The position numbers and the translations under genes were made by a program. The notes under the pieces are model-generated. The model saw only the letters and a list, made by a program, of their open reading frames with translations. It made no database searches and was not told where the DNA came from. Positions 141-60,236 of a stretch of 64,000 bases of DNA are shown one piece after another. Position 1 is the stretch's first letter; each line of letters begins with the position of its first letter. The stretch is from Enterobacteria phage vB_EcoM_IME339: sequence record MH051915. One strand, written 5' to 3'.

Positions 141-229
141 TTTTCACAAAACGGTTTACATCTCTGTTCTTCCATGGTACTATACAACTATCAACTACTG
201 ATACAGAAAACAACTTGGAGAATGAAATG
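141..229 (+). promoter_or_regulatory. repeated promoter-leader cassette, copy 1
   Basis: GTTTAC (154-159), 18-nt spacer, TACTAT (178-183); conserved leader 'caactatcaactactgatacag'; GGAG SD; ATG 227. Same module recurs at five other sites. Confidence 0.6.
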
Positions 230-4451: not shown

Positions 4452-4476
4452 ATTCACAGTTACTTGGAGGGATAAA

Positions 4477-4893
4477 ATGACTCGTATTAATTTGACTTTA
4501 GTATCTGAACTTGCTGATCAACATTTAATCGCAGAATACCGTGAACTGCCGCGTGTTTTTGGTATAGTTCGTAAACATGTTGCAAATGGTAAACGGGTTA
4601 AAGATTTTAAAATATCTTCCGAGTTTATTTTAGGTTCTGGTCATGTTACGTTCTTTTATGATAAGTTAGAATTTTTGCGAAAGCGTCAATCAGACATTAT
4701 AACGGAATGCTTAAAACGTGGGTTTAGTATAAAAGATACTGAAGTTCCTGACATCAGCGATATTCCAGCAGAATGGAAAAATGATTATAATCCATGCAAA
4801 TCAGCTATTAAGTTGAGTCAACAACGACTCGATGAAAAAATTTTAATGAAGCCACACTGGTATAAATACTACGGTAAAAATATTTACATTTAA
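4477..4893 (+). CDS. denV: endonuclease V (pyrimidine dimer glycosylase)
   Basis: 138 aa, [28 protein letters not shown]; strong similarity to recalled T4 DenV. Confidence 0.93.
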
Positions 4894-4902
4894 AGGAAAC
4901 AC

Positions 4903-5376
4903 ATGAAAACATATCAAGAATTTATCACTGAAGCAGCTATTAATTCTCAAATTATTGCTGAATCTTTTACTGATCTTTTGAAATTTAAAAAAGGTCAAAA
5001 AATCACTGCTGTATTGGATGATGGTACAGAAGTTGAGATGGATGTACAGGGATATAATTATGCAGTAGATGGAAAACTGTATAATAAATCTCACGCTAAA
5101 TTTGATTCATTTGACGACTTTGTTAATACAGTTGAAGATGAAAAAACTCGTAGATCAATTTCAACTGGCGATGCTAAGGTTCTTATGGCGCACGGCCATG
5201 AACGTATCCGCGCCAAACAGAATAAAATGGGTGAAGATAATTTTGCATTAGTTGGTTATCAATCTGGTAAGCAAACTTATGGCTATCAGCGTACTGCTAC
5301 CATGTATAACAAAAATGGTAAAATCGCTTTCGTGAATAGCAAAGGCTCTATTCAGTACGTCAAATCATTCAAATAA
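4903..5376 (+). CDS. internal protein with capsid-targeting N-terminus (IPII/IPIII-like)
   Basis: Starts MKTYQEFITEA, the CTS motif of T4 internal proteins; basic 157-aa body. Lies after denV rather than between e and denV. Confidence 0.7.
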   Translation: MKTYQEFITEAAINSQIIAESFTDLLKFKKGQKITAVLDDGTEVEMDVQGYNYAVDGKLYNKSHAKFDSFDDFVNTVEDEKTRRSISTGDAKVLMAHGHERIRAKQNKMGEDNFALVGYQSGKQTYGYQRTATMYNKNGKIAFVNSKGSIQYVKSFK

Positions 5377-5529
5377 GCAAATAAGAAATATGGGAACAAG
5401 CTGGACCTCATGATTCTATGAGGGATTCCCGCCAACCTGTAATAAGGTCGAGCCTGAGTGCGGTAATGGGTAAATACAGAAATGGACAATTCATGCGCCA
5501 TGGAATGGCCCAAATTTAGAGAGAATAAA

Positions 5530-7583: not shown

Positions 7584-8045
7584 ATGACTATCAACACAGA
7601 AGTTTTTATCCGTCGAAATAAGCTCCGTCGTCACTTTGAGTCGGAGTTTCGTCAAATTAACAATGAGATTCGTGAGGCATCAAAAGCAGCAGGGGTCTCA
7701 TCGTTTCATCTAAAATATTCTCAACATCTTCTTGATCGTGCAATTCAACGGGAGATTGATGAGACATATGTTTTTGAATTATTCCACAAAATAAAAGACC
7801 ATGTTTTAGAAGTTAATGAATTCCTGAGTATGCCTCCACGCCCTGATATTGACGAAGATTTTATTGATGGTGTTGAATATCGTCCTGGGCGTTTAGAAAT
7901 CACAGATGGAAATCTTTGGCTTGGATTTACAGTTTGTAAACCTAATGCGAAGTTCAAAGACCCGTCGCTTCAATGCAGGATGGCAATTATCAACAGTCGT
8001 CGTTTACCGGGAAAGGCTTCTAAGGCAGTAATTAAAACTCAATGA
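7584..8045 (+). CDS. regB: RegB site-specific endoribonuclease
   Basis: 153 aa, MTINTEVFIRRNKLRRHFESEF...; length and sequence as recalled for T4 RegB. Confidence 0.9.
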   Translation: MTINTEVFIRRNKLRRHFESEFRQINNEIREASKAAGVSSFHLKYSQHLLDRAIQREIDETYVFELFHKIKDHVLEVNEFLSMPPRPDIDEDFIDGVEYRPGRLEITDGNLWLGFTVCKPNAKFKDPSLQCRMAIINSRRLPGKASKAVIKTQ

Positions 8046-11705: not shown

Positions 11706-11727
11706 AGTCTCCTTCGGGAGACTTTTT
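11706..11727 (+). terminator. intrinsic terminator (gtctccTTCGggagac + T6)
   Basis: Perfect hairpin and T-run. Confidence 0.7.
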
Positions 11728-11734
11728 TCATTTT

Positions 11735-11799
11735 ACCGGTTTACTTTCCATTTGAGCTGTGATACTATACAACCATCGGATAAAGAGGAGAACATCATG
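11735..11799 (+). promoter_or_regulatory. diverged copy of the promoter-leader cassette
   Basis: GTTTAC ... 'gatactatacaaccatcgg' ... GAGGAG ... ATG 11797; related to copies 1-5. Confidence 0.45.
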
Positions 11800-13258: not shown

Positions 13259-13780
13259 ATGTTTATTTCAAGTGGAAGTGGTTTAATTCGTGTTGAATTT
13301 AAAAATGACATCTTCCTTATTCAAGGAGACGATATTATTAAAATGAGTTATGATGAAATTAAGAAAATTTGTAATGCTCTTGAAAATCATGGAAAGGTGA
13401 ATGCTGTCATTGATATTGGCGATTTATGGGTGACACTTTATGAAGTATCCGAAGGATTTAACATTGAAGATGAAAACAACATCTTAGCTATTGATAAAAG
13501 AAGCGATTTGTTTGATGTGTTAAAAGTTTATGAACAGTCAAACGGTGGAAGAAAAGCTGCATTGATTTATCAAAAACCACATTCATGTGGAACTGCTTCA
13601 ATTATTTCAGATATTGAAGATGAAACTGATACTTATATGTGTATTTTAAAAGCTGGTGGTGACCGTCATCCGGATTTTATTTCTATTCGTCAAAACAATG
13701 GAGAAATTTCATTATCAAAATCAGAAGCTGAAGCTATGATTAAGTATTTAACAACTGTTACACCTTCAATGAAAGGATGA
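13259..13780 (+). CDS. hypothetical protein (173 aa), paralog of previous ORF
   Basis: C-terminus ...SKSEAEAMIKYLTTVTPSM. Confidence 0.55.
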   Translation: MFISSGSGLIRVEFKNDIFLIQGDDIIKMSYDEIKKICNALENHGKVNAVIDIGDLWVTLYEVSEGFNIEDENNILAIDKRSDLFDVLKVYEQSNGGRKAALIYQKPHSCGTASIISDIEDETDTYMCILKAGGDRHPDFISIRQNNGEISLSKSEAEAMIKYLTTVTPSMKG

Positions 13781-14250
13781 TTATAATTATGGTTATTAAT
13801 GAAAACTCTTGGCATTATAAATTATTCAAAATGTTTAACGACGAATGGAAACGACCTAAGACACTGTGCGCGTATTTTTGGTCTATTGTTATCCCTACAT
13901 TTTTCGTTTCTTTATTCGGATGTACTATGCTCGCAGGTCTAACTATTATCTGCGCAGAAATCATACAGAAATGGCTTATTTTTGGTAGTTTATGGACTCT
14001 TATTCCATCAGCATTTATACTTGCCATTTTGCTTGTTTTACTTATTATTGGTTCATTTGTTATTCCTGCACAACTGCATGAAAAATATAAAGATTATAAA
14101 TGGAAAAAGGATTATGCTTTACATGTAGAAAATATTGATAGGGCGTATAAAGGTTTACCTCCTATTCAACCCAAGAAATCTATTATCGTCGAATTTTTAA
14201 AAGCGCGCAAAGCTAAAGTATGTCCTGTTATTGAATATAAGGCTGAATGA
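13777..14250 (+). CDS. integral membrane protein (157 aa)
   Basis: Several hydrophobic helices; ATGA-coupled to neighbours. Confidence 0.55.
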   Translation: MIIIMVINENSWHYKLFKMFNDEWKRPKTLCAYFWSIVIPTFFVSLFGCTMLAGLTIICAEIIQKWLIFGSLWTLIPSAFILAILLVLLIIGSFVIPAQLHEKYKDYKWKKDYALHVENIDRAYKGLPPIQPKKSIIVEFLKARKAKVCPVIEYKAE

Positions 14251-15260: not shown

Positions 15261-15262
15261 TA

Positions 15263-15286
15263 GGGAGCCTTCGGGCTCCCTTTTTT
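15263..15286 (+). terminator. intrinsic terminator (gggagcCTTCGggctccc + T6)
   Basis: Perfect UUCG hairpin and T-run. Confidence 0.75.
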
Positions 15287-15296
15287 ATTTCAAAAT

Positions 15297-15377
15297 TTTT
15301 TCACAAAACGGTTTACAAGCATAAAGCTTTATGGTACTATACAACTATCAACTGATACGGATTTGGAGAATAAAATG
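15297..15377 (+). promoter_or_regulatory. repeated promoter-leader cassette, copy 2
   Basis: 'ttttcacaaaacggtttaca...ggtactatacaactatcaact...ttggagaataaaATG'. Confidence 0.6.
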
Positions 15378-16343
15378 AAAACTGTAACTATCAATAAGGG
15401 TATCTACTTCGGTAAAGAAATCTCTGGAACTTTTGAGCTCTTAGGCGAATGGTTCCCAGATAATGCTCCGGTAGATGCACAAGGAGATGGTAAAGTTTTT
15501 GTTGAAATTGACGGTAAACGTCGCGGTGTTTGGGTTTACAAATCAGATATTTCATATGATGGTGTAAAGGTTGAAGAAGTTAAAGAATCGTATGAAGATA
15601 TGAAAACCCGCATTAATAAAAGATTTAATGTTATGGGAATGATGACGAATGGTATTATTAATGGAAATATTCGTTCATTAATTATCTCTGGCGCAGCAGG
15701 TATTGGTAAAACGTATTCTTTAGATAAAGCTTTGAATAAAGCAAATGATATTGGATACATTGAATATAAAAGCATTAATGGTAAAATCTCTGGTATTGGT
15801 CTTTATGAGCAGCTTTGGAATAATCGTGAAGAGAATTCTGTCCTTTTGATTGATGATGTGGATGTTTTCTCTGATATGGACATTCTTAATCTTCTAAAAG
15901 CCGCTCTGGACACCGGAGAGACCCGTAAAGTCTGCTGGAGCACTGCGTCTTCTTACTTAGAAGAAAAAGGCATTGAGCGTGAGTTTGAATTTAAAGGAAC
16001 GATTGTTTTTATCACAAACGTTGACATTGACCGCGAATTAGACCGTGGTACTAAACTTGCTCCACACTTACAAGCATTAGTGTCCCGCTCGGTTTATTTA
16101 GATTTGGGTGTTCACACTAATGAAGAAATTATGGTCAGGGTTGAAGATGTTATTCTTTCAACTGACATGATGCAAAAGCGCGGTCTTTCTGATGAAGAAA
16201 CTTATAAAGCATTATCATGGATGAAAGTTAATGTTAATCGTTTACGCAATGTTTCACTGCGTACTGCTCTTTATCTTGCTGACTTTATTATGACCGATAA
16301 AAACGGTTGGGAAGAAATCGCTGAGGTTACTCTTCTGAAATAA
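15375..16343 (+). CDS. AAA/P-loop ATPase (322 aa)
   Basis: Walker A GAAGIGKT, Walker B VLLIDDVD; ATG 15375 after cassette SD. Confidence 0.6.
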   Translation: MKTVTINKGIYFGKEISGTFELLGEWFPDNAPVDAQGDGKVFVEIDGKRRGVWVYKSDISYDGVKVEEVKESYEDMKTRINKRFNVMGMMTNGIINGNIRSLIISGAAGIGKTYSLDKALNKANDIGYIEYKSINGKISGIGLYEQLWNNREENSVLLIDDVDVFSDMDILNLLKAALDTGETRKVCWSTASSYLEEKGIEREFEFKGTIVFITNVDIDRELDRGTKLAPHLQALVSRSVYLDLGVHTNEEIMVRVEDVILSTDMMQKRGLSDEETYKALSWMKVNVNRLRNVSLRTALYLADFIMTDKNGWEEIAEVTLLK

Positions 16344-16747: not shown

Positions 16748-16810
16748 TGGTTTACAAGACTGTTCCTCTGTGGTACTATACAACTATCAACTACGGAGGA
16801 ACACAAAATG
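16748..16810 (+). promoter_or_regulatory. repeated promoter-leader cassette, copy 3 (shortened leader)
   Basis: GTTTACA ... 'tggtactatacaactatcaactacggagga' ... ATG 16808. Confidence 0.55.
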
Positions 16811-17335
16811 AACGCTAAAGATATTTTCAACTTGGTAAATTACAACGATGGTAAATTTAAATCTGAAGCGCAAAGCAAGTTCTTTAACGACATCTCAATC
16901 GGAGGTGAAATCACTGTTGATGGAGGACAAATTTACAAATCCCGTTGGAATTGGATCGTTATTATTGATGAGATCGGTATTGTAGAAATTTACAAAAATA
17001 CGAATAAAAATCGTACATTGCACTGGTCTCGTGATACTAACGAACAGTACAAAAAGGATAAAGCATCTAAATTATCTCGTGTAACTCAAGAAGATATTGA
17101 GTTCATCAAGAAAGATATTTTAATGTATGATAATTTAATTGCTGAAGAGCAAGCTGTTATTGATAAATTTGACGAGATTAAAGCTTCTCGTGAAATTCCT
17201 GATTTTATGAAAGAATCGGTAAATGAACGATACACTCTCATTTCAGAGCGTATTGAAACTTACAAAAAGCAAAGAGCTGAACGCCAAAATACTCTTCGGA
17301 AGTTTGAAGAACGGTTAAAGACGGTACTCGCATAA
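16808..17335 (+). CDS. hypothetical protein (175 aa)
   Basis: ORF immediately behind cassette copy 3. Confidence 0.5.
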   Translation: MNAKDIFNLVNYNDGKFKSEAQSKFFNDISIGGEITVDGGQIYKSRWNWIVIIDEIGIVEIYKNTNKNRTLHWSRDTNEQYKKDKASKLSRVTQEDIEFIKKDILMYDNLIAEEQAVIDKFDEIKASREIPDFMKESVNERYTLISERIETYKKQRAERQNTLRKFEERLKTVLA

Positions 17336-18705: not shown

Positions 18706-19734
18706 ATGAAAACTCGTTCTCAAATTGAAGATATGGTTCGTAATGCCAGCTATACTCGTGATGTTATGACATTTTTGTGTGAAAATAATTTAGACCCTGA
18801 TAAAGTTAATCATGTTATTCATCACTTTAAGTATACAAATAGCAGTGAATGGATACGTAATTTTAGTAAAGCAGGGTATATTACACAAATGACGGCTCGT
18901 GAGCAGCTCACAGATTTCTGTAAAACTATTGATTATAAAAATCCTCTATTTGTTCAAGGCGTTGGTCAAAGTAAGGTCGATTTATCATCTGGATTTTTCA
19001 ATCCAAATCATTATCGTATTGAATGGAGATTTATTGCTCTGTTCCGTAGACAATTAAAGCAAATTTTATCAACTGCGAGTCGATTGAAAGGTTCTGATAT
19101 TAACTTAAAGAACCTGAAATTTGATGGTTATACTCTTCAGATGGAAGTAAGACCATTAAAAGAAAATAACAGAACTGCACGAATTAGCTTTAAACCTAAT
19201 ACAAAAAATTCTCTTTCAATTTGCGAATGCCTTAAATCGCAGTTGACAGAAGCATTTAAGTATATGGATGTTGTTGCTGCAGTTCATTCTAAGATTTTAC
19301 CTCGTTTTGAGCGAAATTGGGAACATACAACAACGTATGAACTTGATATGATCGTTTCATTTAAATATGAATTTTTGAGAAAGGACGAAGTTACACAAGA
19401 GAAAAAGCAAGAAGTGCAAGATAACTTAAATTTAAATTTATCCAATTACTCATCAAACGATCCTAAATGTTGGATGTACAGTTCAAGTAGTACAGATGCA
19501 TGGAAACTTAATAAAGTGAGTTTTCTTCCTACTGAAAATTCAAATTTTAAACCTGTAGAAAAATGGCACGCCGATGCGATTGAGAAGTCTCTTAAAGCAG
19601 TAGATGATGAACTTGTTAAAGCAACTAATGAAATGTTAGAAGCTGAAAAGGTGTTAGAACAAGCACAATCAAGAGTTCAAAATCTGACAAAGCAACGTTC
19701 TAAACTGAACAATGCACTAAATGCACTGAACTAG
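18706..19734 (+). CDS. coiled-coil-tailed protein B (342 aa), tandem family member
   Basis: N-terminus MKTR..; internal ...KYMDVVAAVH; coiled-coil tail ...LNNALNALN. Confidence 0.6.
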   Translation: MKTRSQIEDMVRNASYTRDVMTFLCENNLDPDKVNHVIHHFKYTNSSEWIRNFSKAGYITQMTAREQLTDFCKTIDYKNPLFVQGVGQSKVDLSSGFFNPNHYRIEWRFIALFRRQLKQILSTASRLKGSDINLKNLKFDGYTLQMEVRPLKENNRTARISFKPNTKNSLSICECLKSQLTEAFKYMDVVAAVHSKILPRFERNWEHTTTYELDMIVSFKYEFLRKDEVTQEKKQEVQDNLNLNLSNYSSNDPKCWMYSSSSTDAWKLNKVSFLPTENSNFKPVEKWHADAIEKSLKAVDDELVKATNEMLEAEKVLEQAQSRVQNLTKQRSKLNNALNALN

Positions 19735-19763
19735 TTTACTTTGCCACAAGGATGTGGTATAAT
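19734..19763 (+). promoter_or_regulatory. early promoter with inverted repeat over the -10
   Basis: GTTTAC, 18 nt, 'ccacaaggatgtggTATAAT'; near-identical promoter at 63946-63975. Confidence 0.55.
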
Positions 19764-24457: not shown

Positions 24458-26271
24458 CAATTGAAAAAGAAATTGAAGGATTGATTCATAAAACTAATAA
24501 AGACCTTTTGAACGAGAATGCTAATAAAGATTCTCGTGTTTTTCCAACTCAACGGGACCTTATGGCTGGTATTGTGTCTAAACACATTGCCAAAAATATG
24601 GTCCCGTCTTTTATTATGAAAGCGCATGAAAGCGGAATTATCCATTTCCATGATATTGATTATTCCCCTGCTCTTCCATTTACTAATTGCTGTTTAGTAG
24701 ATTTAAAAGGAATGCTTGAAAACGGATTTAAGCTCGGTAATGCGCAGATTGAAACTCCTAAATCAATCGGCGTTGCTACTGCAATTATGGCACAAATTAC
24801 TGCACAGGTTGCTTCCCATCAATATGGCGGAACGACTTTTGCGAATGTAGATAAAGTACTTTCTCCTTATGTTAAACGCACCTATGCAAAACATATTGAG
24901 GATGCAGAAAAATGGCAAATCGCTGATGCGTTGAATTATGCCCAATCTAAAACAGAAAAAGACGTATACGATGCATTCCAAGCTTATGAATATGAAGTAA
25001 ATACTCTCTTTAGTTCAAATGGACAAACGCCTTTTGTAACAATTACATTTGGTACGGGAACTGACTGGACTGAACGAATGATTCAGAAAGCAATTCTGAA
25101 AAATCGTATTAAAGGCCTTGGCCGTGATGGAATAACTCCTATTTTCCCTAAGCTTGTTATGTTCGTTGAAGAGGGTGTCAATCTTTATAAAGATGATCCG
25201 AACTATGATATTAAGCAGCTTGCGTTAGAATGTGCAAGCAAAAGAATGTATCCTGATATTATTTCAGCTAAGAACAATAAAGCTATCACCGGTTCATCTA
25301 TTCCTGTTTCTCCAATGGGTTGCCGTAGTTTCTTAAGCGTATGGAAAGATTCGACTGGTAATGAAATTCTTGATGGACGTAATAATCTCGGTGTTGTAAC
25401 ACTGAATCTTCCTCGCATTGCGTTAGATTCTTATATTGGAACACAATTCAATGAACAGAAATTTGCCGAATTGTTCAATGAACGAATGGATTTGTGTTTT
25501 GAAGCTTTGATGTGTAGAATTAGTTCCTTAAAAGGAGTTAAAGCGACCGTTGCTCCTATTCTTTACCAAGAAGGTGCATTCGGGGTTCGTCTTAAACCTG
25601 ATGACGACATAATTGAGTTATTTAAAAACGGTAGAAGTTCAGTGTCCCTAGGATACATTGGTATTCACGAATTGAATATTCTTGTCGGTCGTGATATTGG
25701 ACAGGAAATTTTGACTAAAATGAATGCTCGTCTTAAACGGTGGACTGAAAGAACCGGTTTTGCTTTTAGCTTGTATTCTACTCCTGCTGAAAACCTGTGC
25801 TATCGCTTCTGTAAACTTGATACTGAAAAATATGGAAGTGTAAAAGATGTTACTGATAAAGGCTGGTACACTAATAGTTTCCATGTTTCAGTAGAAGAAA
25901 ATATTACTCCGTTTGAAAAGATTTCTCGCGAAGCCCCATATCATTTCATTGCGACAGGTGGTCACATTTCTTATGTTGAACTTCCTGATATGAAAAATAA
26001 CTTAAAAGGTCTTGAGGCTGTATGGGATTATGCTGCACAACATTTAGATTATTTTGGTGTTAACATGCCAGTAGATAAATGTTTTACATGTGGAAGTACC
26101 CATGAAATGACTCCTACTGAAAACGGATTTGTTTGTTCTATTTGTGGAGAAACTGATCCTAAAAAGATGAATACGATAAGAAGAACTTGTGGTTATTTGG
26201 GAAATCCGAACGAACGCGGATTTAATCTCGGCAAAAATAAAGAAATCATGCATAGGGTTAAACACCAATGA
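24454..26271 (+). CDS. nrdD: anaerobic ribonucleoside-triphosphate reductase NrdD (uninterrupted)
   Basis: 605 aa contiguous ORF; C-terminal glycyl-radical region (...RRTCGYLG) and Cys cluster. Confidence 0.95.
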   Translation: MTIEKEIEGLIHKTNKDLLNENANKDSRVFPTQRDLMAGIVSKHIAKNMVPSFIMKAHESGIIHFHDIDYSPALPFTNCCLVDLKGMLENGFKLGNAQIETPKSIGVATAIMAQITAQVASHQYGGTTFANVDKVLSPYVKRTYAKHIEDAEKWQIADALNYAQSKTEKDVYDAFQAYEYEVNTLFSSNGQTPFVTITFGTGTDWTERMIQKAILKNRIKGLGRDGITPIFPKLVMFVEEGVNLYKDDPNYDIKQLALECASKRMYPDIISAKNNKAITGSSIPVSPMGCRSFLSVWKDSTGNEILDGRNNLGVVTLNLPRIALDSYIGTQFNEQKFAELFNERMDLCFEALMCRISSLKGVKATVAPILYQEGAFGVRLKPDDDIIELFKNGRSSVSLGYIGIHELNILVGRDIGQEILTKMNARLKRWTERTGFAFSLYSTPAENLCYRFCKLDTEKYGSVKDVTDKGWYTNSFHVSVEENITPFEKISREAPYHFIATGGHISYVELPDMKNNLKGLEAVWDYAAQHLDYFGVNMPVDKCFTCGSTHEMTPTENGFVCSICGETDPKKMNTIRRTCGYLGNPNERGFNLGKNKEIMHRVKHQ

Positions 26272-26738
26272 ATTATGATAGATTTTATCCTTGCGATTTT
26301 GTGAATGGCCCTGGATGCAGGGTCGTTCTTTTCGTTACAGGTTGTTTGCATAAATGCGAAGGGTGTTATAATAAATCAACATGGAATGCTAGAAATGGCG
26401 TTCCATTCACTGGTGAAACACTGGAACAATTAATTGAATGTTTGAATAATGATTATATAGAAGGATTAACTATAACTGGAGGAGACCCTCTCTATCCTGA
26501 TAACCGAGATGTTATTCACTCTGTGGTTCAAACAGTAAAAAATCTTTATCCAAATAAAAGCATTTGGTTGTGGACAGGATATAAATTTGAAGATATTAAA
26601 CAACTAGAAATGCTTAAATATGTTGATGTTATTATTGATGGGAAGTATGAGAAAAATCTTCCTACCAAAAAGCTGTGGCGAGGATCAGATAATCAGCGAC
26701 TTTGGTCAAATACCGATGGGGTGTGGAAACATGATTAA
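26268..26738 (+). CDS. nrdG: anaerobic RNR activating enzyme NrdG (radical SAM)
   Basis: 156 aa; Cys-rich motif CLHKCEGCYN; ATGA-coupled to nrdD. Confidence 0.9.
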   Translation: MNYDRFYPCDFVNGPGCRVVLFVTGCLHKCEGCYNKSTWNARNGVPFTGETLEQLIECLNNDYIEGLTITGGDPLYPDNRDVIHSVVQTVKNLYPNKSIWLWTGYKFEDIKQLEMLKYVDVIIDGKYEKNLPTKKLWRGSDNQRLWSNTDGVWKHD

Positions 26739-30747: not shown

Positions 30748-30771
30748 AAACCAAAACAATGAGGATATTAA

Positions 30772-31974
30772 ATGAAAGTATGTATTTTTATGGCTCGAGG
30801 TCTTGAAGGTTGCGGTGTAACTAAATTTTCTCTTGAGCAACGTGATTGGTTTATTAAAAATGGTCATGAAGTAACTTTGGTTTATGCTAAAGATAAATCA
30901 TTTACACGTAATTGCGCGCATGATTATAAATCATTTTCAATTCCGGTTTTATTGGCAAAAGAATACGATAAAACACTTAAGCTGGTAAATGATTGTGATA
31001 TTCTAATTATCAATTCAGTTCCTGCTACTTCAGTCGAAGAAGACACTATTAATAACTATAAAAAAATTATTGATAACATTAAACCTTCAGTTCGTGTTGT
31101 AGTTTATCAACATGACCATTCTTCTCTTTCTTTGCGCCGAAATTTGGGATTAGAAGAAACTGTTCGTCGAGCTGATGTTATTTTTAGTCATTCTGATAAT
31201 GGTGATTTTAATAAAGTTCTGATGAAAGAATGGTATCCAGAAACAGTTTCTCTGTTTGATGATATTGAAGAAGCACCGACTGTATACAACTTTCAGCCTC
31301 CTATGGATATTGCGAAGGTTCGATCAACCTACTGGAAAGATGTTTCTGAAATTAACATGAATGTCAACCGTTGGATTGGTCGTACGACTACATGGAAAGG
31401 TTTTTATCAGATGTTTGATTTTCACGAAAAACATCTTAAACCTGCTGGACTAAGTACTATTATGGAAGGTCTGGAACGTTCTCCAGCGTTCATTCCTATT
31501 AAAGAAAAAGGAATTCCATACGAGTATTATCGTCTTCATCAAGTAGACCAAATTAAAATTGCTCCTAATTTGCCAACGCAAATTCTCGACCGTTATGTAA
31601 ATAGCGAAATGCTTGAACGCATGAGTAAATCCGGATTTGGTTATCAGTTGAGTAAGTTGGACAAAAAATATCTACAACGTTCTTTAGAATATACTCATCT
31701 CGAGCTTGGCGCGTGCGGAACAATTCCAGTATTTTGGAAATCTACTGGCGAAAATTTAAAATTCCGTGTTGATAATACTCCGTTAATTTCTCATGATAGT
31801 GGTATCGTTTGGTTTGATGAAAATGACATGGAATCAACATTTGAGCGTATTAAAGAACTGTCATCTGACCGAGCTCTTTATGACTGTGAACGCGAAAAAG
31901 CTTATGAATTTTTGTATCAGCATCAAGATTCAAGCTTCTGCTTTAAAGAACAGTTTGACATTATTACAAAATAA
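30772..31974 (+). CDS. a-gt: DNA alpha-glucosyltransferase
   Basis: 400 aa, MKVCIFMARGLEGCGVTKFSLEQRDWFIKNGHEVTLVYAKDK...; recalled T4 alpha-gt. Confidence 0.9.
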   Translation: MKVCIFMARGLEGCGVTKFSLEQRDWFIKNGHEVTLVYAKDKSFTRNCAHDYKSFSIPVLLAKEYDKTLKLVNDCDILIINSVPATSVEEDTINNYKKIIDNIKPSVRVVVYQHDHSSLSLRRNLGLEETVRRADVIFSHSDNGDFNKVLMKEWYPETVSLFDDIEEAPTVYNFQPPMDIAKVRSTYWKDVSEINMNVNRWIGRTTTWKGFYQMFDFHEKHLKPAGLSTIMEGLERSPAFIPIKEKGIPYEYYRLHQVDQIKIAPNLPTQILDRYVNSEMLERMSKSGFGYQLSKLDKKYLQRSLEYTHLELGACGTIPVFWKSTGENLKFRVDNTPLISHDSGIVWFDENDMESTFERIKELSSDRALYDCEREKAYEFLYQHQDSSFCFKEQFDIITK

Positions 31975-41415: not shown

Positions 41416-41436
41416 GGGACCTCCGGGTCCCTTTTT
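41416..41436 (+). terminator. intrinsic terminator (gggaccTCCGggtccc + T5)
   Basis: Perfect hairpin and T-run after gene 43. Confidence 0.7.
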
Positions 41437-41478
41437 CATACAAGTAATATAAATCTATACTTAGGAAAAATAGATGAT

Positions 41479-41590
41479 TCTGGACCTCTGGAATTCATTA
41501 AAAATTTTTTTCACAAAATGGTTTACATCCCGGTTCCTTTGTGGTACTATACAACTATCAACTACTGATACAGATTTGGAGAATGAAATG
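41479..41590 (+). promoter_or_regulatory. repeated promoter-leader cassette, copy 4
   Basis: Shares 'tctggacctct..gaattc..ttttcacaaaa(c/t)ggtttaca...ggtactatacaactatcaactactgatacag..ttggagaatgaaATG' with copy 1. Confidence 0.6.
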
Positions 41591-41968
41591 AAAATCGCTA
41601 TTTTGGTTATTGCATTGGGTCTTACTGGTTGTGTAGCTCAAGGACCAGTAGTAAATCAGTCTGATGCAGGAAAAATTGTAAACTGTTCAAGCAAATTTTA
41701 TAATCCTAACGTCAAGTGTTATAAAGAAGCTCCAAAACAGACAGTAGAACAAATGCAGGCGAATTTTGACGAAGCTATTCGTTCAGATGAATCTGCCCAA
41801 GCATATCGTAATTCAGATGTAATTACACGCGAAGAAAAAATTGAAAATTACTGCGCCGTTCTTTGGGCAAATTGGGCTAATAATTACCAATGGCGTACAG
41901 GTAAAAACGCTCCGATGGAGTATGTAGTGAATTCTTATAATTCATGTGTAAAAAATTTGACTAAGTGA
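41588..41968 (+). CDS. lipoprotein (126 aa) next to imm
   Basis: Signal peptide plus lipobox LTGC; ATG 41588 behind cassette SD. Confidence 0.6.
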   Translation: MKIAILVIALGLTGCVAQGPVVNQSDAGKIVNCSSKFYNPNVKCYKEAPKQTVEQMQANFDEAIRSDESAQAYRNSDVITREEKIENYCAVLWANWANNYQWRTGKNAPMEYVVNSYNSCVKNLTK

Positions 41969-42380: not shown

Positions 42381-43121
42381 ATGATTAATGACTCTATGAC
42401 AGTTGAAGAAATCCGTCTTCATTTGGGAATTGCATTAAAGGAAAAAGATTTCGTAGTTGATAAAACTGGTGTTAAAACTATTGAAATTATTGGTGCATCA
42501 TTTGTAGCAGATGAACCTTTTATTTTTGGCGCTCTTAATGATGAATACATTCAGCGTGAACTTGAATGGTATAAGTCTCAAAGTTTGTTTGTTAAAGATA
42601 TTCCAGGTGAAACACCAAAGATTTGGCAGCAGGTAGCATCTTCTAAAGGCGAAATTAACTCGAATTATGGTTGGGCTATCTGGTCAGAAGATAACTATGC
42701 TCAGTATGATATGTGTTTAGCTGAACTTGGTCAAAATCCTGATTCTCGGCGTGGTATCATGATTTATACTCGTCCATCCATGCAGTTTGACTACAACAAA
42801 GATGGTATGTCAGATTTCATGTGTACGAATACAGTACAGTACCTGATTCGTGATAAGAAAGTCAATGCAGTAGTAAGCATGCGTTCAAATGACGTGGTCT
42901 TCGGATTCCGTAATGATTATGCATGGCAAAAATACGTACTAGATAAATTAGTATCTGATTTGAATGCAGGTGATTCAACTCGCCAGTATAAAGCAGGTTC
43001 CATTATATGGAATGTCGGGAGCCTTCATGTGTATTCTCGTCATTTTTATTTGGTTGACCATTGGTGGAAAACCGGCGAAACTCATATTGCGAAAAAAGAT
43101 TATAATGGTGAGTGGAAATGA
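42381..43121 (+). CDS. 42: dCMP hydroxymethylase gp42
   Basis: 246 aa; thymidylate-synthase-like fold; T4 gp42 length. Confidence 0.95.
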   Translation: MINDSMTVEEIRLHLGIALKEKDFVVDKTGVKTIEIIGASFVADEPFIFGALNDEYIQRELEWYKSQSLFVKDIPGETPKIWQQVASSKGEINSNYGWAIWSEDNYAQYDMCLAELGQNPDSRRGIMIYTRPSMQFDYNKDGMSDFMCTNTVQYLIRDKKVNAVVSMRSNDVVFGFRNDYAWQKYVLDKLVSDLNAGDSTRQYKAGSIIWNVGSLHVYSRHFYLVDHWWKTGETHIAKKDYNGEWK

Positions 43122-43960
43122 TTCAATTTGTAATTCCAAGCTATCAACGCGTAGGGGCAGTTTCTGCCCTTGATATGTTTCCGACTGATTATGAACCTCA
43201 TATTGTAGTACGTGAACATGAAGAAAAAGCTTATTATGACGCTTACGGGTCTAGAGCTAAAATTATAACTATTCCTGATGATGTTAATGGAATTGCTGGA
43301 ACTCGTAAAGCAATTACTGATATGTATGCAGGTCAACGAATTTGGATGATTGATGATGATACTACTATTCGTATGAGTTCAATGCGAAAGAAAGATGATC
43401 GTCGCTGCGTAGATAAAATTAATCAATTAACTCGTGAACAGTTCTATGAATTGATTCAATACGTGGAAGATGCCATGGATTGCGGGTATTATCACGGTCA
43501 TGCTCGTCTACCTATTTTTAAAATTACTTCATCTTGGGGTAATTATCGTGAAAATTCATATGGATTCACGAATACATGGTATGACCTCGGAAAACTTACT
43601 ACAGAACAAATTGGGTATGGAAAAATTGATTTATGCGAAGATATGTATGCATTTCTCAATTTAATTAACCAAGGTTATCCGCATTTGGCTTTGTTCAAAT
43701 ATCTGGTTGTGTCTGGAAAAGCGCAGGCTCCTGGCGGATGTAGTTCAATTCGTAGTAATTCAAAACATAATAGAGCTCTTGAGCAAATCAATAGAGAGTT
43801 TCCAGAGCAAGCTCGTTGGAAAACTTCTAATATTGAAAAACGAAAATCATTAGGTGAAGAAGACGAGCCATTAAAGGTTCTTCGTATGTGTGTTTCGCGC
43901 AAAGAAAAATCAGAAGCGTTTCATAAGTTTAATGCTATTCATCCAATAGCAGTCGATTAA
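43118..43960 (+). CDS. putative glycosyltransferase (DxD motif) at the beta-gt position
   Basis: 280 aa, ...RIWMIDDDTT...; unlike recalled T4 beta-gt; may correspond to T2/T6-type beta-alpha-gt. Confidence 0.55.
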   Translation: MIQFVIPSYQRVGAVSALDMFPTDYEPHIVVREHEEKAYYDAYGSRAKIITIPDDVNGIAGTRKAITDMYAGQRIWMIDDDTTIRMSSMRKKDDRRCVDKINQLTREQFYELIQYVEDAMDCGYYHGHARLPIFKITSSWGNYRENSYGFTNTWYDLGKLTTEQIGYGKIDLCEDMYAFLNLINQGYPHLALFKYLVVSGKAQAPGGCSSIRSNSKHNRALEQINREFPEQARWKTSNIEKRKSLGEEDEPLKVLRMCVSRKEKSEAFHKFNAIHPIAVD

Positions 43961-43984
43961 TGCCTAAATTTATTGTGTTATAAT
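43961..43984 (+). promoter_or_regulatory. middle-promoter-like element upstream of uvsX
   Basis: TGCCTAA (near MotA box) 43961-43967; TATAAT 43979-43984. Confidence 0.4.
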
Positions 43985-44037
43985 TACCCTATCTTTAACC
44001 AGTGAGGAAAATATAATGATGCCTATGGAAAAAATGA

Positions 44038-45219
44038 ATGTCTATTGCAGATTTAAAATCCCGTTTGATTAAAGCTTCCACTTCTAAAATGACTGCTGAA
44101 CTGACTACATCTAAATTCTTTAATGAAAAGGATGTAATCCGTACAAAAATTCCAATGCTTAATATCGCTATTTCCGGCGCGATTGATGGTGGTATGCAGT
44201 CTGGTTTAACTATTTTTGCAGGTCCTTCTAAACACTTTAAATCAAATATGTCTTTGACTATGGTTGCGGCGTATTTGAACAAATATCCTGATGCGGTTTG
44301 TCTATTTTATGATAGCGAATTTGGTATTACTCCAGCTTATTTGCGATCCATGGGAGTTGACCCGGAACGAGTAATTCATACACCAATCCAGTCAGTTGAA
44401 CAACTGAAAATTGATATGGTGAATCAGCTTGAAGCTATTGAGCGCGGTGAAAAAGTTATTGTATTCATCGACTCAATCGGTAATATGGCTTCTAAGAAAG
44501 AAACGGAAGATGCCTTGAATGAAAAATCTGTGGCAGATATGACTCGTGCTAAATCACTGAAGTCATTATTCCGTATTGTTACTCCTTATTTTAGTATTAA
44601 AAACATTCCGTGCGTTGCGGTTAACCATACAATTGAAACAATTGAAATGTTTAGTAAAACCGTGATGACAGGTGGTACAGGCGTAATGTATTCGGCTGAT
44701 ACTGTATTCATTATCGGTAAGCGTCAGATTAAAGATGGTTCTGATCTTCAGGGGTATCAATTTGTTCTAAATGTAGAAAAATCTCGTACCGTTAAAGAAA
44801 AAAGTAAATTCTTTATTGATGTTAAATTTGACGGTGGTATCGATCCTTATTCTGGATTGTTAGATATGGCTCTTGAATTAGGATTTGTAGTAAAACCTAA
44901 AAATGGCTGGTATGCTCGTGAATTTCTTGATGAAGAAACCGGCGAGATGATTCGCGAAGAAAAATCTTGGCGTGCAAAAGATACCAACTGTACTACATTC
45001 TGGGGTCCTTTATTTAAGCATCAACCATTCCGAGATGCTATTAAACGCGCTTATCAGTTGGGTGCTATTGATAGTAATGAAATTGTTGAAGCTGAAGTTG
45101 ATGAATTGATTAACTCAAAGGTTGAAAAATTTAAATCTCCAGAAAGTAAAAGTAAATCAGCAGCTGATTTAGAAACTGACCTAGATCAGTTAAGTGATAT
45201 GGAAGAATTTAATGAATAA
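44038..45219 (+). CDS. uvsX: RecA-like recombinase UvsX
   Basis: 393 aa; Walker A GPSKHFKS; strong similarity to recalled T4 UvsX. Confidence 0.97.
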   Translation: MSIADLKSRLIKASTSKMTAELTTSKFFNEKDVIRTKIPMLNIAISGAIDGGMQSGLTIFAGPSKHFKSNMSLTMVAAYLNKYPDAVCLFYDSEFGITPAYLRSMGVDPERVIHTPIQSVEQLKIDMVNQLEAIERGEKVIVFIDSIGNMASKKETEDALNEKSVADMTRAKSLKSLFRIVTPYFSIKNIPCVAVNHTIETIEMFSKTVMTGGTGVMYSADTVFIIGKRQIKDGSDLQGYQFVLNVEKSRTVKEKSKFFIDVKFDGGIDPYSGLLDMALELGFVVKPKNGWYAREFLDEETGEMIREEKSWRAKDTNCTTFWGPLFKHQPFRDAIKRAYQLGAIDSNEIVEAEVDELINSKVEKFKSPESKSKSAADLETDLDQLSDMEEFNE

Positions 45220-47229: not shown

Positions 47230-47472
47230 ATGCATATTGTTTTATTTAAACCTACTCCGTATAATGTCAGGAAAAATACTCAATTCAAAGCACTTGTTGC
47301 AGATACGTGGGAATTGGTGTTAGATATTCCAGCAGAAGAAAGTCCTCCATTTGGTCGAGTGGAATTTATTAAGTTTGCTGTGCGCCCTACGAAGCGACAG
47401 ATTCGCCAATGCAAAAGATACTTTCGTAAAATCGTCAAGTTAGAGAAACAGTTATTGATGCTAGTAAAATAG
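47230..47472 (+). CDS. hypothetical protein (80 aa; 61.4 position)
   Basis: ORF track 47188; ATG 47230 behind SD. Confidence 0.5.
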   Translation: MHIVLFKPTPYNVRKNTQFKALVADTWELVLDIPAEESPPFGRVEFIKFAVRPTKRQIRQCKRYFRKIVKLEKQLLMLVK

Positions 47473-47474
47473 TA

Positions 47475-47504
47475 GTTTACAAGCTGATAGAGTTGTGTTA
47501 TAGT
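47475..47504 (+). promoter_or_regulatory. early promoter with inverted repeat over -10
   Basis: GTTTAC, 18 nt, TATAGT; 'gctgatagag...ctatcagc'. Confidence 0.5.
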
Positions 47505-47535
47505 AATTCTATCAGCTAATCGCGGAGAAAAGAAA

Positions 47536-47790
47536 ATGATGCTAGTTAATAGAGAATATCAGTTTAAATCAGAAGAAGATTTGGAAAAATTCGCGAGTGG
47601 TTGTGAACTGAATAGACGCACAGCTAAAGTCATAGGATTAAAACCCTTTACAGTTCTAGATTGTGAAGTTTCTAAATTCCGCAGAGGGTGTTCTATTAGC
47701 GGTCATGCTCTGGTTGATGGGAACACATTTTTCTTTGTTTTTAGCGTCAGAGAACTTTTATTGATTAACGAACTTGAGGAAATAAAATAG
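47536..47790 (+). CDS. hypothetical protein (84 aa)
   Basis: ORF track. Confidence 0.5.
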   Translation: MMLVNREYQFKSEEDLEKFASGCELNRRTAKVIGLKPFTVLDCEVSKFRRGCSISGHALVDGNTFFFVFSVRELLLINELEEIK

Positions 47791-47854
47791 TTTACTTTTA
47801 TTTTAAACATGTTATTATAGACCTATCAAAACAAACGAGTAAATGGAGAACAAA

Positions 47855-48037
47855 ATGTCTAAAGTATCAGGTTATCAATTATTAACACAAGAACAACGTT
47901 CAGAGATGGATTCTTTACAAGAACGGTGTCAGCATAGAAATAACGCACTTGATTCATTTTTATTAGTTGAATATGAAAACTTGTGCTCTAGACTTGAAAA
48001 AGAATATGTTCATCAACATGAAGGAGGAGAAGAATGA
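47855..48037 (+). CDS. hypothetical protein (60 aa)
   Basis: ORF track 47843; ATG 47855 behind GGAG. Confidence 0.45.
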   Translation: MSKVSGYQLLTQEQRSEMDSLQERCQHRNNALDSFLLVEYENLCSRLEKEYVHQHEGGEE

Positions 48038-48140
48038 AACTGAAATCACCAATTATTGCAATTTGTCTGTTTGCTTCTACTAGTGTTTACTTTTGTTGAA
48101 AATTGAGATACTATAAACATAAACTACTGAGGAGATTATC

Positions 48141-50197: not shown

Positions 50198-50268
50198 ATA
50201 TCCTCCTTATTGCTTTATATATTTATTGTATAATTAATCTACTAATCCATGAATTGAAAGGAAAAATA

Positions 50269-51165: not shown

Positions 51166-51196
51166 CACCTGTAATTAAACAATAAAGGAGTTTATT

Positions 51197-60225: not shown

Positions 60226-60236
60226 AATTTAAAATT

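Follow-up and report, generated by a model that had tools for sequence, protein, structure and literature searches.

The early promoters (Pe) of phage T4 have reportedly been compiled by Liebig and Rüger (1989), by Wilkens and Rüger and by Miller et al. (2003). They are regarded as 'uber' promoters that combine UP, -35, TGn and -10 elements with extra consensus regions (Hinton 2010, PMC2988021), and have the sequence GTTTAC at -36 to -31 (PMC1524935). In T4 and PST, the PeSLs (promoter-early stem-loops) consist of TTTACW-N17-TAYWAT promoters with an upstream A/T-rich region, a stem-loop and a 3' Shine-Dalgarno sequence with ATG (Comeau et al. 2014, PMC4122927), and for RB49 and phi1 the formation of mini-circles between PeSLs was shown experimentally (Arbiol et al. 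2010, PMC2839356). The latter paper draws an analogy to integron gene cassettes and phage 'morons', and conserved flanking sequences are known from the internal-protein loci of T-even phages (Repoila et al. 1994, as cited in PMC2839356 and PMC4122927). Early Shine-Dalgarno sequences are also the main location of the target of the nuclease RegB, GGAGAAUAAAA or GGAGRAYARAA in single-stranded RNA (PMC1702504). Early-promoter activity, RegB specificity and the PeSL model are taken here from this T4 literature and, by analogy, the promoters described below would be active in the immediate-early phase with unmodified host polymerase.

We analysed a window of 64,000 nucleotides of Enterobacteria phage vB_EcoM_IME339 (MH051915), which is the early region of a Tequatrovirus with at least 94% identity to many Tequatrovirus genomes. 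It contains a repeated module of ~90 bp that is real and belongs to the already known family of T4-like early promoters. Very probably, the repeats are paralogues within one Tequatrovirus early-promoter subfamily that is fused to a leader and a translation start, and constitute a PeSL-type immediate-early cassette. The repeat family itself was known before and its current understanding is unchanged; recognising it keeps e.8, nrdC.10, nrdC.8 and imm.1 from being wrongly annotated as newly acquired.

Inventory and anatomy of the cassette copies

The family has five near-identical members (copies 1 to 5) and one diverged member (copy 6), each at a place where the initial annotation had reported it. 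The 21-mer GGTACTATACAACTATCAACT is present without mismatch at positions 176, 15333, 16772 and 41543 of the window and with three mismatches at 60272, always on the plus strand, and was not found in any of 100 shuffled sequences. Direct reading and alignment give the same order of elements at each site: an A/T tract, the -35 element, a spacer of 17-18 nt, TGG-TACTAT, 'acaactatcaact', the leader, GGAG and ATG; the anatomy that had been proposed is thus complete at every position, with a short leader in copy 3. The A/T region, early promoter, Shine-Dalgarno sequence and ATG align as a single conserved unit.

Promoter elements were located by a regex scan of the window. GTTTAC starts at 154, 11739, 15311, 16750 and 41521; the exception is copy 5, with ATATAC at 60250 (three of six positions match). 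TGG-TACTAT is found in all five copies and TGA-TACTAT in the diverged one, which also retains GTTTAC and 'acaac' (11739-11799). For copy 1, the consensus scan returned 155-183 as TTTACA-17-TACTAT with TG: a TAnnAT -10 element at a spacing of 17 nt, counted from TTTACA, with TGn directly 5'. The spacing in the copies is one base tighter than in the pattern GTTTACA-N16-GGTACTAT. An A/T-rich, UP-like tract at about -40 to -60 ('aaaatttttcacaaaac') aligns 5' of copies 1, 2, 4 and 5, while the corresponding region of copy 3 is the 3' end of the preceding gene (nrdC.9 in T4) and matches only in part. Stem-loops are clear at copy 2 (15262-15281), copy 6 (11706-11723) and copy 5 (60256-60298), for copies 4 and 1 a terminator lies 90-115 nt 5', and upstream of copy 3 just a 5-bp A/T-rich stem can be seen by eye, weak at best.

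All features of the individual loci are on the plus strand. The window opens at ccgaaaggttggggcttttt, the 3' half and T-run of an intrinsic terminator (1-20) that is truncated by the window start and lies ~115 nt 5' of the copy 1 -35; the complete T4 hairpin is agccccgaccgaaaggttggggcttttt, 3' of rnaC. The upstream homology of copy 1 (34-153) comprises 'ttctggacctct' (34-45), an extra segment (46-114), 'gaattccctaaaa' with 'gaattc' at 115-120, and the UP-like tract (~126-153). In copy 4 the shared upstream string is contiguous ('ttctggacctctggaattc', 41478-41496) and copy 1 has 69 extra bases, which agrees with the initial annotation; this 69-nt segment holds the degraded promoter-like sequence GTTTAT-N16-TATCCT and may be a degraded cassette. 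The e.8 early promoter of copy 1 (154-229) has its -35 at 154-159, TGG at 175-177 and its -10 at 178-183, followed by a predicted start at ~A190, a leader (190-226), a RegB-type GGAGAATGAAA (217-227) and the ATG (227-229); its T4 orthologue is at 70674. It precedes e.8 (227-490, 87 aa; phrog_2678, 2.6e-56), a name carried in the annotation of RB14, JS98 and T4.

Copy 6 is the mobD.5 early promoter (11706-11799), with a terminator (11706-11723) plus T-run, the -35 at 11739-11744, the -10 at 11763-11768, then GGAGAACATCA and an ATG at 11797-11799. Copy 2, in front of nrdC.10, extends from 15262 to 15377: a hairpin (15262-15281) with T-run, the UP tract, the -35 (15311-15316), the -10 (15335-15340), a strict RegB/S1 site GGAGAATAAAA (15365-15375) and the ATG (15375-15377), with the T4 orthologue at 55362. 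The nrdC.10 product (15375-16343, 322 aa) matches AAA/STAND-type NTPases, always under the Pfam cut-offs. Copy 3, the nrdC.8 early promoter (16750-16810), begins 2 nt past the stop codon of the preceding gene, with the -35 at 16750-16755, the -10 at 16774-16779, a short leader, GGAGG at 16795-16799 and the ATG (16808-16810) of nrdC.8 (16808-17335, 175 aa; phrog_2274). Copy 4, the imm.1 early promoter (41416-41590), follows the gene 43 terminator (41416-41431 plus T-run; -13.9 kcal/mol, z -2.2) and has, after the shared upstream string and the UP tract, the -35 at 41521-41526, the -10 at 41545-41550, GGAGAATGAAA at 41578-41588 and the ATG at 41588-41590; its T4 orthologue is at 27058. Imm.1 (41588-41968, 126 aa) is a DUF5481 protein (Pfam, 4.5e-69) with a lipoprotein-like N-terminus.

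Copy 5, in the motB/cef gap (60226-60326; T4 orthologue at 6608), consists of an A/T tract, ATATAC at the -35 position (60250-60255), the -10 TACTAT (60274-60279), a strict RegB/S1 site GGAGAATAAAA (60314-60324) and an ATG (60324-60326). It had been described as having its -35 region replaced by an inverted repeat of the leader. The inverted repeat is there, with 20-nt arms (60256-60275 and 60279-60298) that are 85% complementary and hold the -10 at the tip (-20.2 kcal/mol, z -4.5), but it occupies the spacer and not the -35. With its poor -35 and the strong hairpin over the -10, copy 5 may not necessarily be a strong promoter. The 89-aa ORF that follows (60324-60593, phrog_3720) is intact in the window; its T4 version has ~208 nt deleted. 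As already proposed, the downstream proteins are mutually unrelated, each belonging to a different PHROG family of unknown function.

The copies share with T4 Pe promoters the GTTTAC, the 17-nt spacing, TGn with TAnnAT, the UP tract, the start-region consensus and the position before early genes, and are orthologues of the T4 promoters of e.8, nrdC.10, nrdC.8, imm.1 and mobD.5. Nothing essential separates the two; the subfamily is marked by TACTAT, the invariant 'acaactatcaact' and the shared leader, and copy 5 deviates by its ATATAC. The PeSL assignment of the initial annotation fits the published description (PMC4122927) too: the copies match TTTACW-N17-TAYWAT, combine an A/T-rich region and early promoter with a 3' Shine-Dalgarno sequence and ATG, mostly have a stem-loop or terminator in the vicinity, and lie in plastic regions before small genes without known function, where close relatives differ by gene indels; moreover, the published T4 ndd.4/.5 exchange example is flanked by two T4 members of the family. 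Unlike in typical PeSLs, the stem-loop lies at a distance from copies 1 and 4 and is no more than weak in copy 3, and behind the window copies there are conserved genes and not ORFans by which sister phages differ. Mini-circles are demonstrated for RB49/phi1 only.

Probable common descent of the copies

A further 18 early-promoter-like sites on the plus strand of the window served as comparison for the five copies. Over the 16 nt 3' of the -10, the mean pairwise identity was 0.85 within the family, 0.40 between the family and these sites and 0.33 among the sites; of 20,000 random groups of five, none came up to 0.85. By this measure the copies are far more alike among themselves than they are to other early promoters, in line with the initial annotation. 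The -10 is TACTAT in all five, and the consensus of the other early sites is TATAAT.

Such similarity might in principle be reached by pure convergence, if every copy was independently selected towards an optimal promoter, start and RegB-ribosome site, without common ancestry and without exchange. It is true that the UP tract, GTTTAC, TGn, the -10 and GGAGAAUAAAA each belong to a functional consensus, that the other early promoters of the window show a weak C-TAT-A pattern 3' of the -10, and that Mosigvirus orthologues have 'cctatc' after the -10, the nrdC.10 one with GGAGAATAAAATG. However, family identity spans the spacer and leader, including positions with no described promoter or RegB role; spacers are common to, or mosaic among, e.8, imm.1 and nrdC.8; and between the terminator tail and +9 the promoters of nrdC.10 and frd.3 do not differ. 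In addition, copies 1 and 4 have 12 + 7 nt of their upstream flanks in common, the T4 copy upstream of ndd.6 is followed by the opening 12 nt of the imm.1 coding sequence, and in the alignment the leader differences among copies are indels inside an otherwise identical string. Because identity covers spacer, leader, upstream flanks and the imm.1 coding start, the copies very probably share descent beyond a mere consensus, and we regard convergence as highly improbable.

Leader and predicted RegB sites

The RegB consensus is strictly matched over its 11 nt by copies 2 and 5, which account for two of the three such matches in the 64 kb. Copies 1 and 4 have a G at position 8 and agree at 10 of 11 positions. 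The site of copy 3, GGAGGAACACA, is a poorer match, in agreement with the moderate cleavage reported for T4 nrdC.8 in Durand 2006 (PMC1702504); the same paper describes motA as a good substrate, the mobD.5 transcript as RegB-insensitive and primer-extension stops at the mobD.5 promoter. In the window, the mobD.5 copy has the consensus broken at positions 9-10 of GGAGAACATCA, which agrees with that insensitivity. Like the RegB/S1 sites of T4 (PMC1702504; Uzan & Miller 2010, PMC3014915), the cassettes of copies 2 and 5 end 3' in GGAGAATAAAA and those of copies 1 and 4 in GGAGAATGAAA, the site overlaps an early-gene Shine-Dalgarno sequence in unstructured RNA, and regB is in the same genome. Among members of the family, the available text names just nrdC.8, motA and mobD.5, and the window sites are predictions: cleavage of copies 1, 2, 4 and 5 by RegB is likely from their match to the consensus. 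The regB gene lies at 7584-8045 (plus strand; Pfam REGB_T4, 1.4e-68), outside the repeat itself, and encodes the predicted trans-acting nuclease for the GGAG site.

The leaders have minimum free energies of 0 to -2.9 kcal/mol (z +0.4 to +1.2) and fold no better than shuffles, with the GGAG site in a predicted single-stranded stretch. That the leader is a structured cis-regulatory RNA or a small RNA (riboswitch, attenuator, sRNA) is hardly credible on these data, even if the sequence that follows the -10 does not vary, copies 1, 4 and 5 allow a 4-bp AUCA/UGAU stem and the hairpin of copy 5 would be strong in a transcript from upstream: the leaders are less structured than their shuffles, the small stem is absent from copy 3, no Rfam family was matched across the whole window, and RegB/S1 sites need single-stranded RNA.

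The block from the -10 to ~+13 (TACTATACAACTATCAACT) is invariant across paralogues and genomes, in a sample partly chosen by matching this very block, and spacers and distal leaders vary. It is conceivable, but very doubtful, that this block together with the C/A-rich leader is the recognition element of a co-regulated immediate-early subset, which could comprise motA, imm.1, e.8, nrdC.10, nrdC.8, frd.3 and the ndd-region ORFs. The promoter determinant of the response to Alt and the factor that ends early promoters at about 3 minutes are open questions in T4 (PMC2988021), and the block could serve in the response of early promoters to Alt-modified RNA polymerase or as target of an early shut-off factor at ~3 minutes.

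As a PeSL-type cassette of the early-promoter subfamily, the unit would work as follows. The stem-loop or terminator would insulate it from upstream transcription, from a place directly 5' (copies 2 and 6), ~90-115 nt 5' (copies 4 and 1) or around the -10 (copy 5). Unmodified host sigma-70 RNA polymerase would bind the unusually complete promoter (UP tract, GTTTAC, TGn, TACTAT) and transcription would start ~7 nt past the -10, at the A of CTATCA, this exact start site being read from the sequence. The C/A-rich leader of 25-40 nt, being single-stranded, would leave the GGAG Shine-Dalgarno sequence open to ribosomes at once. GGAG and its A-rich 3' flank would double as the 11-nt RegB/S1 target, so that the build-up of RegB would cause the message to be cut in the ribosome-binding site, turning translation off after a brief burst. 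In this reading a unit of ~90 bp is insulated, has a very strong promoter for the host polymerase, exposes its ribosome site and carries its own RegB off-switch, which makes a compact and checkable picture of the burst expression of T-even accessory genes.

Orthology with T4 and spread among T-even phages

T4 carries cassettes before the same genes or positions (e.8, nrdC.10, nrdC.8, imm.1, the motB/cef gap and mobD.5), with cassette and gene order conserved inside syntenic alignment blocks of 91-96% identity. In T4 outside 85-120 kb, further members of the family precede motA, frd.3 and ndd.4 and one lies upstream of ndd.6, and both ndd-region copies carry a promoter annotation in GenBank X75802. 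The cassette is matched by 541 phage records at ~5-9 places each. The nrdC.10-nrdC.8 block is present at a coverage of at least 80% in 473 records and the imm.1 block, at the same coverage, in 495 of 530; orthologues of e.8, nrdC.10 and nrdC.8 also occur in Dhakavirus and/or Mosigvirus. Statements on the population are based on evenly spaced samples of BLAST hit lists and are not full counts; a scan of IMG/VR returned about seven T-even genomes. A literature search for texts that name these small genes or map T4 starts by RNA-seq returned nothing usable.

Across genomes the cassettes cluster by locus: of 71 positions, 8.8 on average differ between orthologues and 24 between paralogues. The grouping by locus and not by genome indicates that the family is old. 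Genome-wide concerted evolution was considered and rejected, the paralogue distance being 24.1 within a genome and 24.0 between genomes.

The initial annotation had taken the cassettes as marks of recently shuffled genes, and this is contradicted by T4, which has the same genes, order and cassettes at ordinary divergence. A mobile cassette with recently acquired or shuffled cargo directly behind it in the window would be in line with several observations from other genomes, namely the gain and loss of cassette-bounded gene units at the nrdC.10 site, the extra ORF behind the imm.1 cassette, the truncated ORF behind copy 5, and ndd.4 of phage G8, which is fronted by a duplicated nrdC.8-type cassette. 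But e.8, nrdC.10, nrdC.8 and imm.1 keep their places in T4 and in almost every Tequatrovirus record, the orthologues in other genera and the clustering by locus speak for long residence, and the gene that truly varies in the neighbourhood of copy 1 is not e.8 but its downstream neighbour at the e.7 position, which follows a different promoter. For the window, recent cargo is therefore largely refuted and, as an overall reading, improbable. The comparison among T-evens that had been suggested thus leaves a divided result: the genes behind the copies are conserved and are not cargo, whereas the slot at the cassette boundary is variable.

Variable gene slots at cassette boundaries

At three of the five sites (nrdC.10, imm.1 and motB/cef), the cassette boundary is a population hot spot of gene gain or loss; no boundary indels were seen at the e.8 and nrdC.8 copies themselves. 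In many other T-evens, extra genes sit between the cassette and nrdC.10 or imm.1, for instance a 78-aa ORF before imm.1 in about half of those sampled, and a truncated form of the 89-aa ORF behind copy 5 occurs in T4 and in roughly 45% of the records sampled. Slots at cassettes are thus places of small-gene gain and loss across the T-even population. The nrdC.11/nrdC.10 gap of phage ACG-C40 contains a 621-bp ModB-like unit and a 479-bp unit (a 49-aa ORF plus DUF4031), each bounded by cassette repeats of 52-54 nt that include 37 identical nt. In public genomes this gap has size classes of about +0, +480, +621 and +1100 bp, and all four presence/absence combinations of the two units are found. 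Mosigvirus was tried as a guide to the ancestral state of the gap and discarded, its 88-aa gene being unrelated to the DUF4031 gene of ACG-C40.

Of 40 alignment edges between the window and T4, seven fall into early-promoter cassettes, which make up 4% of the window (P ~0.001); one of these seven belongs to the family described here. The enrichment could reflect survivorship, with only those indels viable that end in intergenic regulatory DNA. Along this line, the cassettes would be real promoters but passive markers of tolerated sites, intragenic indel ends being lethal. We consider this unlikely. In its favour, there is little room between the closely packed genes, promoters and terminators make up most of the early intergenic DNA, and several boundary events use microhomologies of 5-8 nt, such as the deletion that follows copy 5 in T4 and the indel of the 78-aa ORF at imm.1, which end at GAAAA/TAAAA and ATGAAAAT and not at a second cassette. 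A deletion between copies 2 and 3, which are direct repeats 1.44 kb apart, was seen in none of 45 sampled records, drawn from 721 matches; these two copies are therefore not visibly active as recombination partners. Against mere marking stand the nrdC.10 site, whose two units each have long direct cassette repeats at their ends and are found in all combinations, the RB49/phi1 PeSL mini-circles demonstrated experimentally (PMC2839356), and patch-like exchanges between distant copies. The ndd.4 promoter of G8 is the nrdC.8 cassette, identical from the -35 through the Shine-Dalgarno sequence (~55 nt), the spacer of T4 imm.1 combines the nrdC.8 and e.8 types, and the nrdC.10 leader of RB5 is of the same type as the imm.1 leader of the window; occasional ectopic exchange between copies is visible in these alleles. 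A simple deletion between the two promoters of ASO78A was rejected as the origin of the window's nrdC.10 leader, which it does not reproduce; that leader is of the family type.

Together with the anatomy, the T4 orthology, the leaders without structure and the RegB consensus match, the population polymorphisms and mosaic alleles come from the present analysis, and they point again to paralogous cassettes of one early-promoter subfamily. The copies would stem from old duplications that were fixed at their loci before the T-even diversification. With tens of identical bases, these and other early-promoter cassettes may occasionally be used by the T4 recombination system as portable homology, and such recombination, the presumed cause of the indels, would add, remove or swap small genes at the cassette boundary and patch one copy with another.

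Comparable arrangements are the internal-protein loci, where T4-type early-promoter elements also act as linkers around small interchangeable genes, at a separate locus. The window is without ipII and ipIII between e and denV. With integron cassettes and morons, the copies share that a small gene moves with, or lands behind, a ready expression signal; they differ from integron cassettes in having no integrase or attC-like site, and exchange would need general homologous recombination over tens of bases. The nrdC.11/nrdC.10 gap provides a clean natural illustration of the shuffling model published for PeSLs, and can be used to ask whether the cassettes cause exchanges or just mark tolerated sites.

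A repeated early-promoter cassette

The same ordered module, read directly from the sequence, is present at all six places for which it had been claimed in the initial annotation: an A/T-rich tract ending in '...ttttcacaaaacg', GTTTAC, a spacer of 17-18 nt ending in TGG, TACTAT, 'acaactatcaact', a short leader, GGAG and ATG. Copies 1 to 5 precede e.8, nrdC.10, nrdC.8, imm.1 and an 89-aa ORF in the gap between motB and cef, respectively; the sixth copy (11739-11799), in front of mobD.5, is diverged but still recognisable. The 21-mer GGTACTATACAACTATCAACT matches exactly at 176, 15333, 16772 and 41543 and with three mismatches at 60272 of the window, always on the plus strand, with no matches in 100 shuffles.

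The plus strand of the window has about 23 early-promoter-like sites, the five focal copies included. Within the 16 nt 3' of the -10, the copies align better with each other than with other early promoters (85% identity within the family, 40% between the family and the others, 33% among the others); when groups of five were drawn at random 20,000 times, not one matched the family value. The -10 is TACTAT in all five copies; the remaining early promoters of the window favour TATAAT. Copies 1 and 4 do share the upstream sequences 'ttctggacctct' and 'gaattc', with 69 extra bases between the two in copy 1. This 69-base segment (46-114) is kept in T4 and reads GTTTAT-N16-TATCCT followed by 'atc'; going by these motifs, it could be a degraded second promoter cassette. 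Copy 5 was thought to have an inverted repeat of the leader in place of its -35: the repeat is there (60256-60275 and 60279-60298, arms of 20 nt, 85% complementary), but the partner of the leader is the spacer rather than the -35, with the -10 at the tip, and the -35 position reads ATATAC.

The first 6 kb of the window have 94-97% identity to hundreds of Tequatrovirus (T4-like) genomes. Read along its plus strand, the window corresponds to the T4 map in minus-strand direction, between T4 coordinates of about 70.8 kb (e.8) and about 2.4 kb, and T4 has every copy of the window, each before the same gene: at 70674 (e.8), 58758 (mobD.5, the diverged copy), 55362 (nrdC.10), 53921 (nrdC.8), 27058 (imm.1) and 6608 (motB/cef gap). 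Additional T4 family members beyond the range of the window are found before motA, frd.3 and ndd.4 and upstream of ndd.6. A 116-nt query across copy 1 matched 541 phage records; complete genomes have about 5-9 such places each. The cassette is already known and belongs to three overlapping, well-described categories: T4 early promoters, promoter-early stem-loop (PeSL) cassettes and target sites of the T4 endoribonuclease RegB with S1; all findings here are within this published picture. A GenBank entry from the 1990s (X75802) has promoter annotations, with -35 and -10 signals, for both ndd-region copies, and in several recent T-even records these sites bear the label 'similar to phage T4 early promoter'. 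The proposed classing as PeSL-type is correct: the published T4/PST example, ndd.4/.5 (PMC4122927), has two family members as its flanks.

Probable promoter function and insulation

T4 early promoters have the same anatomy as the cassettes of the window. They are 'uber' promoters of the UP/-35/TGn/-10 type with extra consensus regions and are used by the unmodified host polymerase immediately after infection (Hinton review, PMC2988021); a T4 hallmark is GTTTAC at -36 to -31 (PMC1524935). The cassette probably acts as a T4-type early promoter, with transcription predicted to start about 7 nt 3' of TACTAT, on the A of CTATCA; the other early promoters of the window likewise show a C-TAT-A pattern, in weak form. 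It is very improbable that the invariant block from -10 to +13 sets apart a group of early promoters under special control, for instance through Alt response or early shut-off. The invariance of the core is a biased observation, because part of the cassette sample was gathered by exact core match.

Insulation of the cassette would be provided by an upstream terminator or stem-loop. Copy 2 and the mobD.5 copy directly follow an intrinsic terminator (15262-15281 and 11706-11723, respectively). The terminator upstream of copy 4 (41416-41431; -13.9 kcal/mol) is about 90 nt away and that upstream of copy 1 about 115 nt; the hairpin of the latter is cut by the window start and is complete in T4. Copy 5 has instead a hairpin over its -10 (-20.2 kcal/mol, z -4.5). 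An adjacent stem-loop, one of the PeSL features, is clear in three copies, distant in two and weak in one. In one IMG/VR contig (167,948 bp), the terminator hairpin is joined straight to the spacer at two different family copies, with UP tract and -35 deleted; these fusions may reflect either a true loss of the promoter or faulty assembly.

Predicted RegB sites in the leaders

The cassette leaders are essentially unstructured (MFE 0 to -2.9 kcal/mol, positive z-scores). At its 3' end the cassette has GGAGAATAAAATG in copies 2 and 5 and GGAGAATGAAATG in copies 1 and 4. According to Durand et al. 2006 (PMC1702504), GGAGRAYARAA in single-stranded form is cut by T4 RegB together with ribosomal protein S1, and the T4 optimum is GGAGAAUAAAA; the sites described there and in PMC3014915 are mainly Shine-Dalgarno sequences of early messages, which are inactivated by the cut. 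Only three strict consensus matches exist in the 64 kb, copies 2 and 5 among them, and regB itself is encoded in the window (7584-8045). Thus, the likeness of the cassette 3' ends is largely explained by known function. The copy 3 (nrdC.8) site, GGAGGAACACA, is a poorer match and the mobD.5 site is mismatched at positions 9-10 of the consensus; the same source lists the T4 nrdC.8 site as 'moderately cleaved', motA as a good substrate and the mobD.5 transcript as insensitive (PMC1702504). RegB would shut off expression by a cut in the Shine-Dalgarno site of the cassette, with copies 1, 2, 4 and 5 as predicted substrates.

Shared ancestry of the copies

Convergence and ancestry both contribute to the likeness of the copies, but the case for ancestry is clear. 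Identity spans positions without a described part in promoter recognition or RegB cutting, the upstream flanks of copies 1 and 4 are common to both, and e.8, imm.1 and nrdC.8 have related spacers, which in some genomes are mosaic. The T4 frd.3 promoter (146853) is the nrdC.10 cassette, identical from the terminator tail via the spacer to +9. The T4 copy upstream of ndd.6 (X75802, 1017-1110) runs on into ATGAAAATCGCT, which is codons 1-4 of imm.1, and the reading frame stops after eight codons. Other T-evens have an ORF of 80 or 87 aa (MKFKFYY...) at this place.

When copies from eleven genome sources were compared over 71 positions, they clustered by locus: the mean number of differing positions was 8.8 for orthologues and 24 for paralogues. 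Within-genome homogenisation of paralogues was not detectable in these eleven sources (distance of 24.1 within versus 24.0 between genomes). The locus-wise grouping and the equal paralogue distances indicate an old family that is fixed at its loci and does not undergo homogenisation. Occasional ectopic exchange between copies is suggested by patches: in phage G8 the ndd.4 promoter is the nrdC.8 cassette from the -35 through the Shine-Dalgarno sequence, in T4 one half of the imm.1 spacer is of the nrdC.8 type and the other of the e.8 type, and in RB5 the nrdC.10 leader is of the imm.1 type.

Conserved genes and variable slots

The genes behind the cassettes had been regarded as recently shuffled cargo, which is wrong for the window: e.8, nrdC.10, nrdC.8 and imm.1 are at the same places in T4, inside alignment blocks of 91-96% identity, and almost every Tequatrovirus record has them (473 with coverage of at least 80% for the nrdC.10-nrdC.8 block, 495 of 530 for the imm.1 block). 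Orthologues of e.8, nrdC.10 and nrdC.8 are present in Dhakavirus and/or Mosigvirus, where their promoters are separate ones that differ in sequence.

The slots at the cassettes are hot spots in the T-even population. Between nrdC.11 and nrdC.10, ASO78A has a 49-aa ORF and a DUF4031 gene, and ACG-C40 has these two and a ModB-like gene. The 49-aa ORF and DUF4031 form a unit of 479 bp and the ModB-like gene one of 621 bp, both flanked by cassette repeats of 52-54 nt (with 37 identical nt in those of the ModB-like unit), and the size classes of the gap in the sampled genomes (about +0, +480, +621 and +1100 bp) correspond to all four combinations; T4 and the window have neither unit. At the imm.1 site, about half of the sampled T-evens have a 78-aa ORF between cassette and imm.1, with junctions at ATGAAAAT. 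The 89-aa ORF behind copy 5 is intact in the window, T2 and AR1; in T4 and about 45% of the sampled records, a deletion of some 208 nt starts right after ATGGAAAA and leaves an 11-codon stub. In a few genomes, the 5' edge of the copy 5 cassette is the exact point of homology loss. Of 40 window-versus-T4 alignment edges, seven are inside early-promoter cassettes, which make up 4% of the sequence (P ~0.001, for edges that are not independent and with only one of the seven in the focal family).

These slots fit the PeSL model, in which conserved promoter/stem-loop units are linkers for homologous recombination (Arbiol et al. 2010, PMC2839356; Comeau et al. 2014, PMC4122927). Survivorship, with only those indels viable that end in regulatory intergenic DNA, is a credible alternative but less likely as the main cause. 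The repeat-bounded units of the nrdC.10 site point to real recombination; the microhomology junctions and the lack of a copy 2/copy 3 deletion in the sampled records speak against very active copies. T4 promoter 146143, a paralogue of the second nrdC.10 promoter of ASO78A and ACG-C40, has a stem (agggta/taccct) around its -10.

Further differences from T4

The gene at the e.7 position (491-1021) is replaced relative to T4; only 45 of 587 matching records have the greater part of this stretch, including Dhakavirus JS98 and IME08 at about 85%. The stretch is flanked by two early promoters, the first of which (491-520), with a stem-loop (caggctcat/atgagcctg) around its -10, is a textbook PeSL example. 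Between e and denV (4466-5388) there is no ipII or ipIII, leaving T4 66454-65359 without counterpart; the 5' part of denV has only 78% identity to T4 and its promoter (4422) differs from that of T4 denV. A 630-bp insertion between 61.4 and sp (47453-48084) has two small ORFs (47536-47790 and 47843-48037) with their own early promoters at 47475 and 47790, and the third strict RegB consensus site of the window (47845-47855) belongs to the second ORF. The dam region, the nrdD intron with I-TevII, mobC and mobB are absent, and the beta-gt/segA, mobD and segF regions have other sequence instead of that of T4 (50208-50229, 24989-24992, 26268-26288, 30756-30781, 43103-44050, 13277-14246 and 50787-51252 for these losses and replacements). 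Two further pairs of early promoters are paralogous: 11706-11768 and 51460-51505 have a common terminator and 'ttttcattttacYgGTTTACtttcca', and 19734-19763 and 63946-63975 share 17 of 18 spacer bases ('tttRccacaaggatgtgg'), a spacer that also resembles that of the T4 copy upstream of ndd.6.
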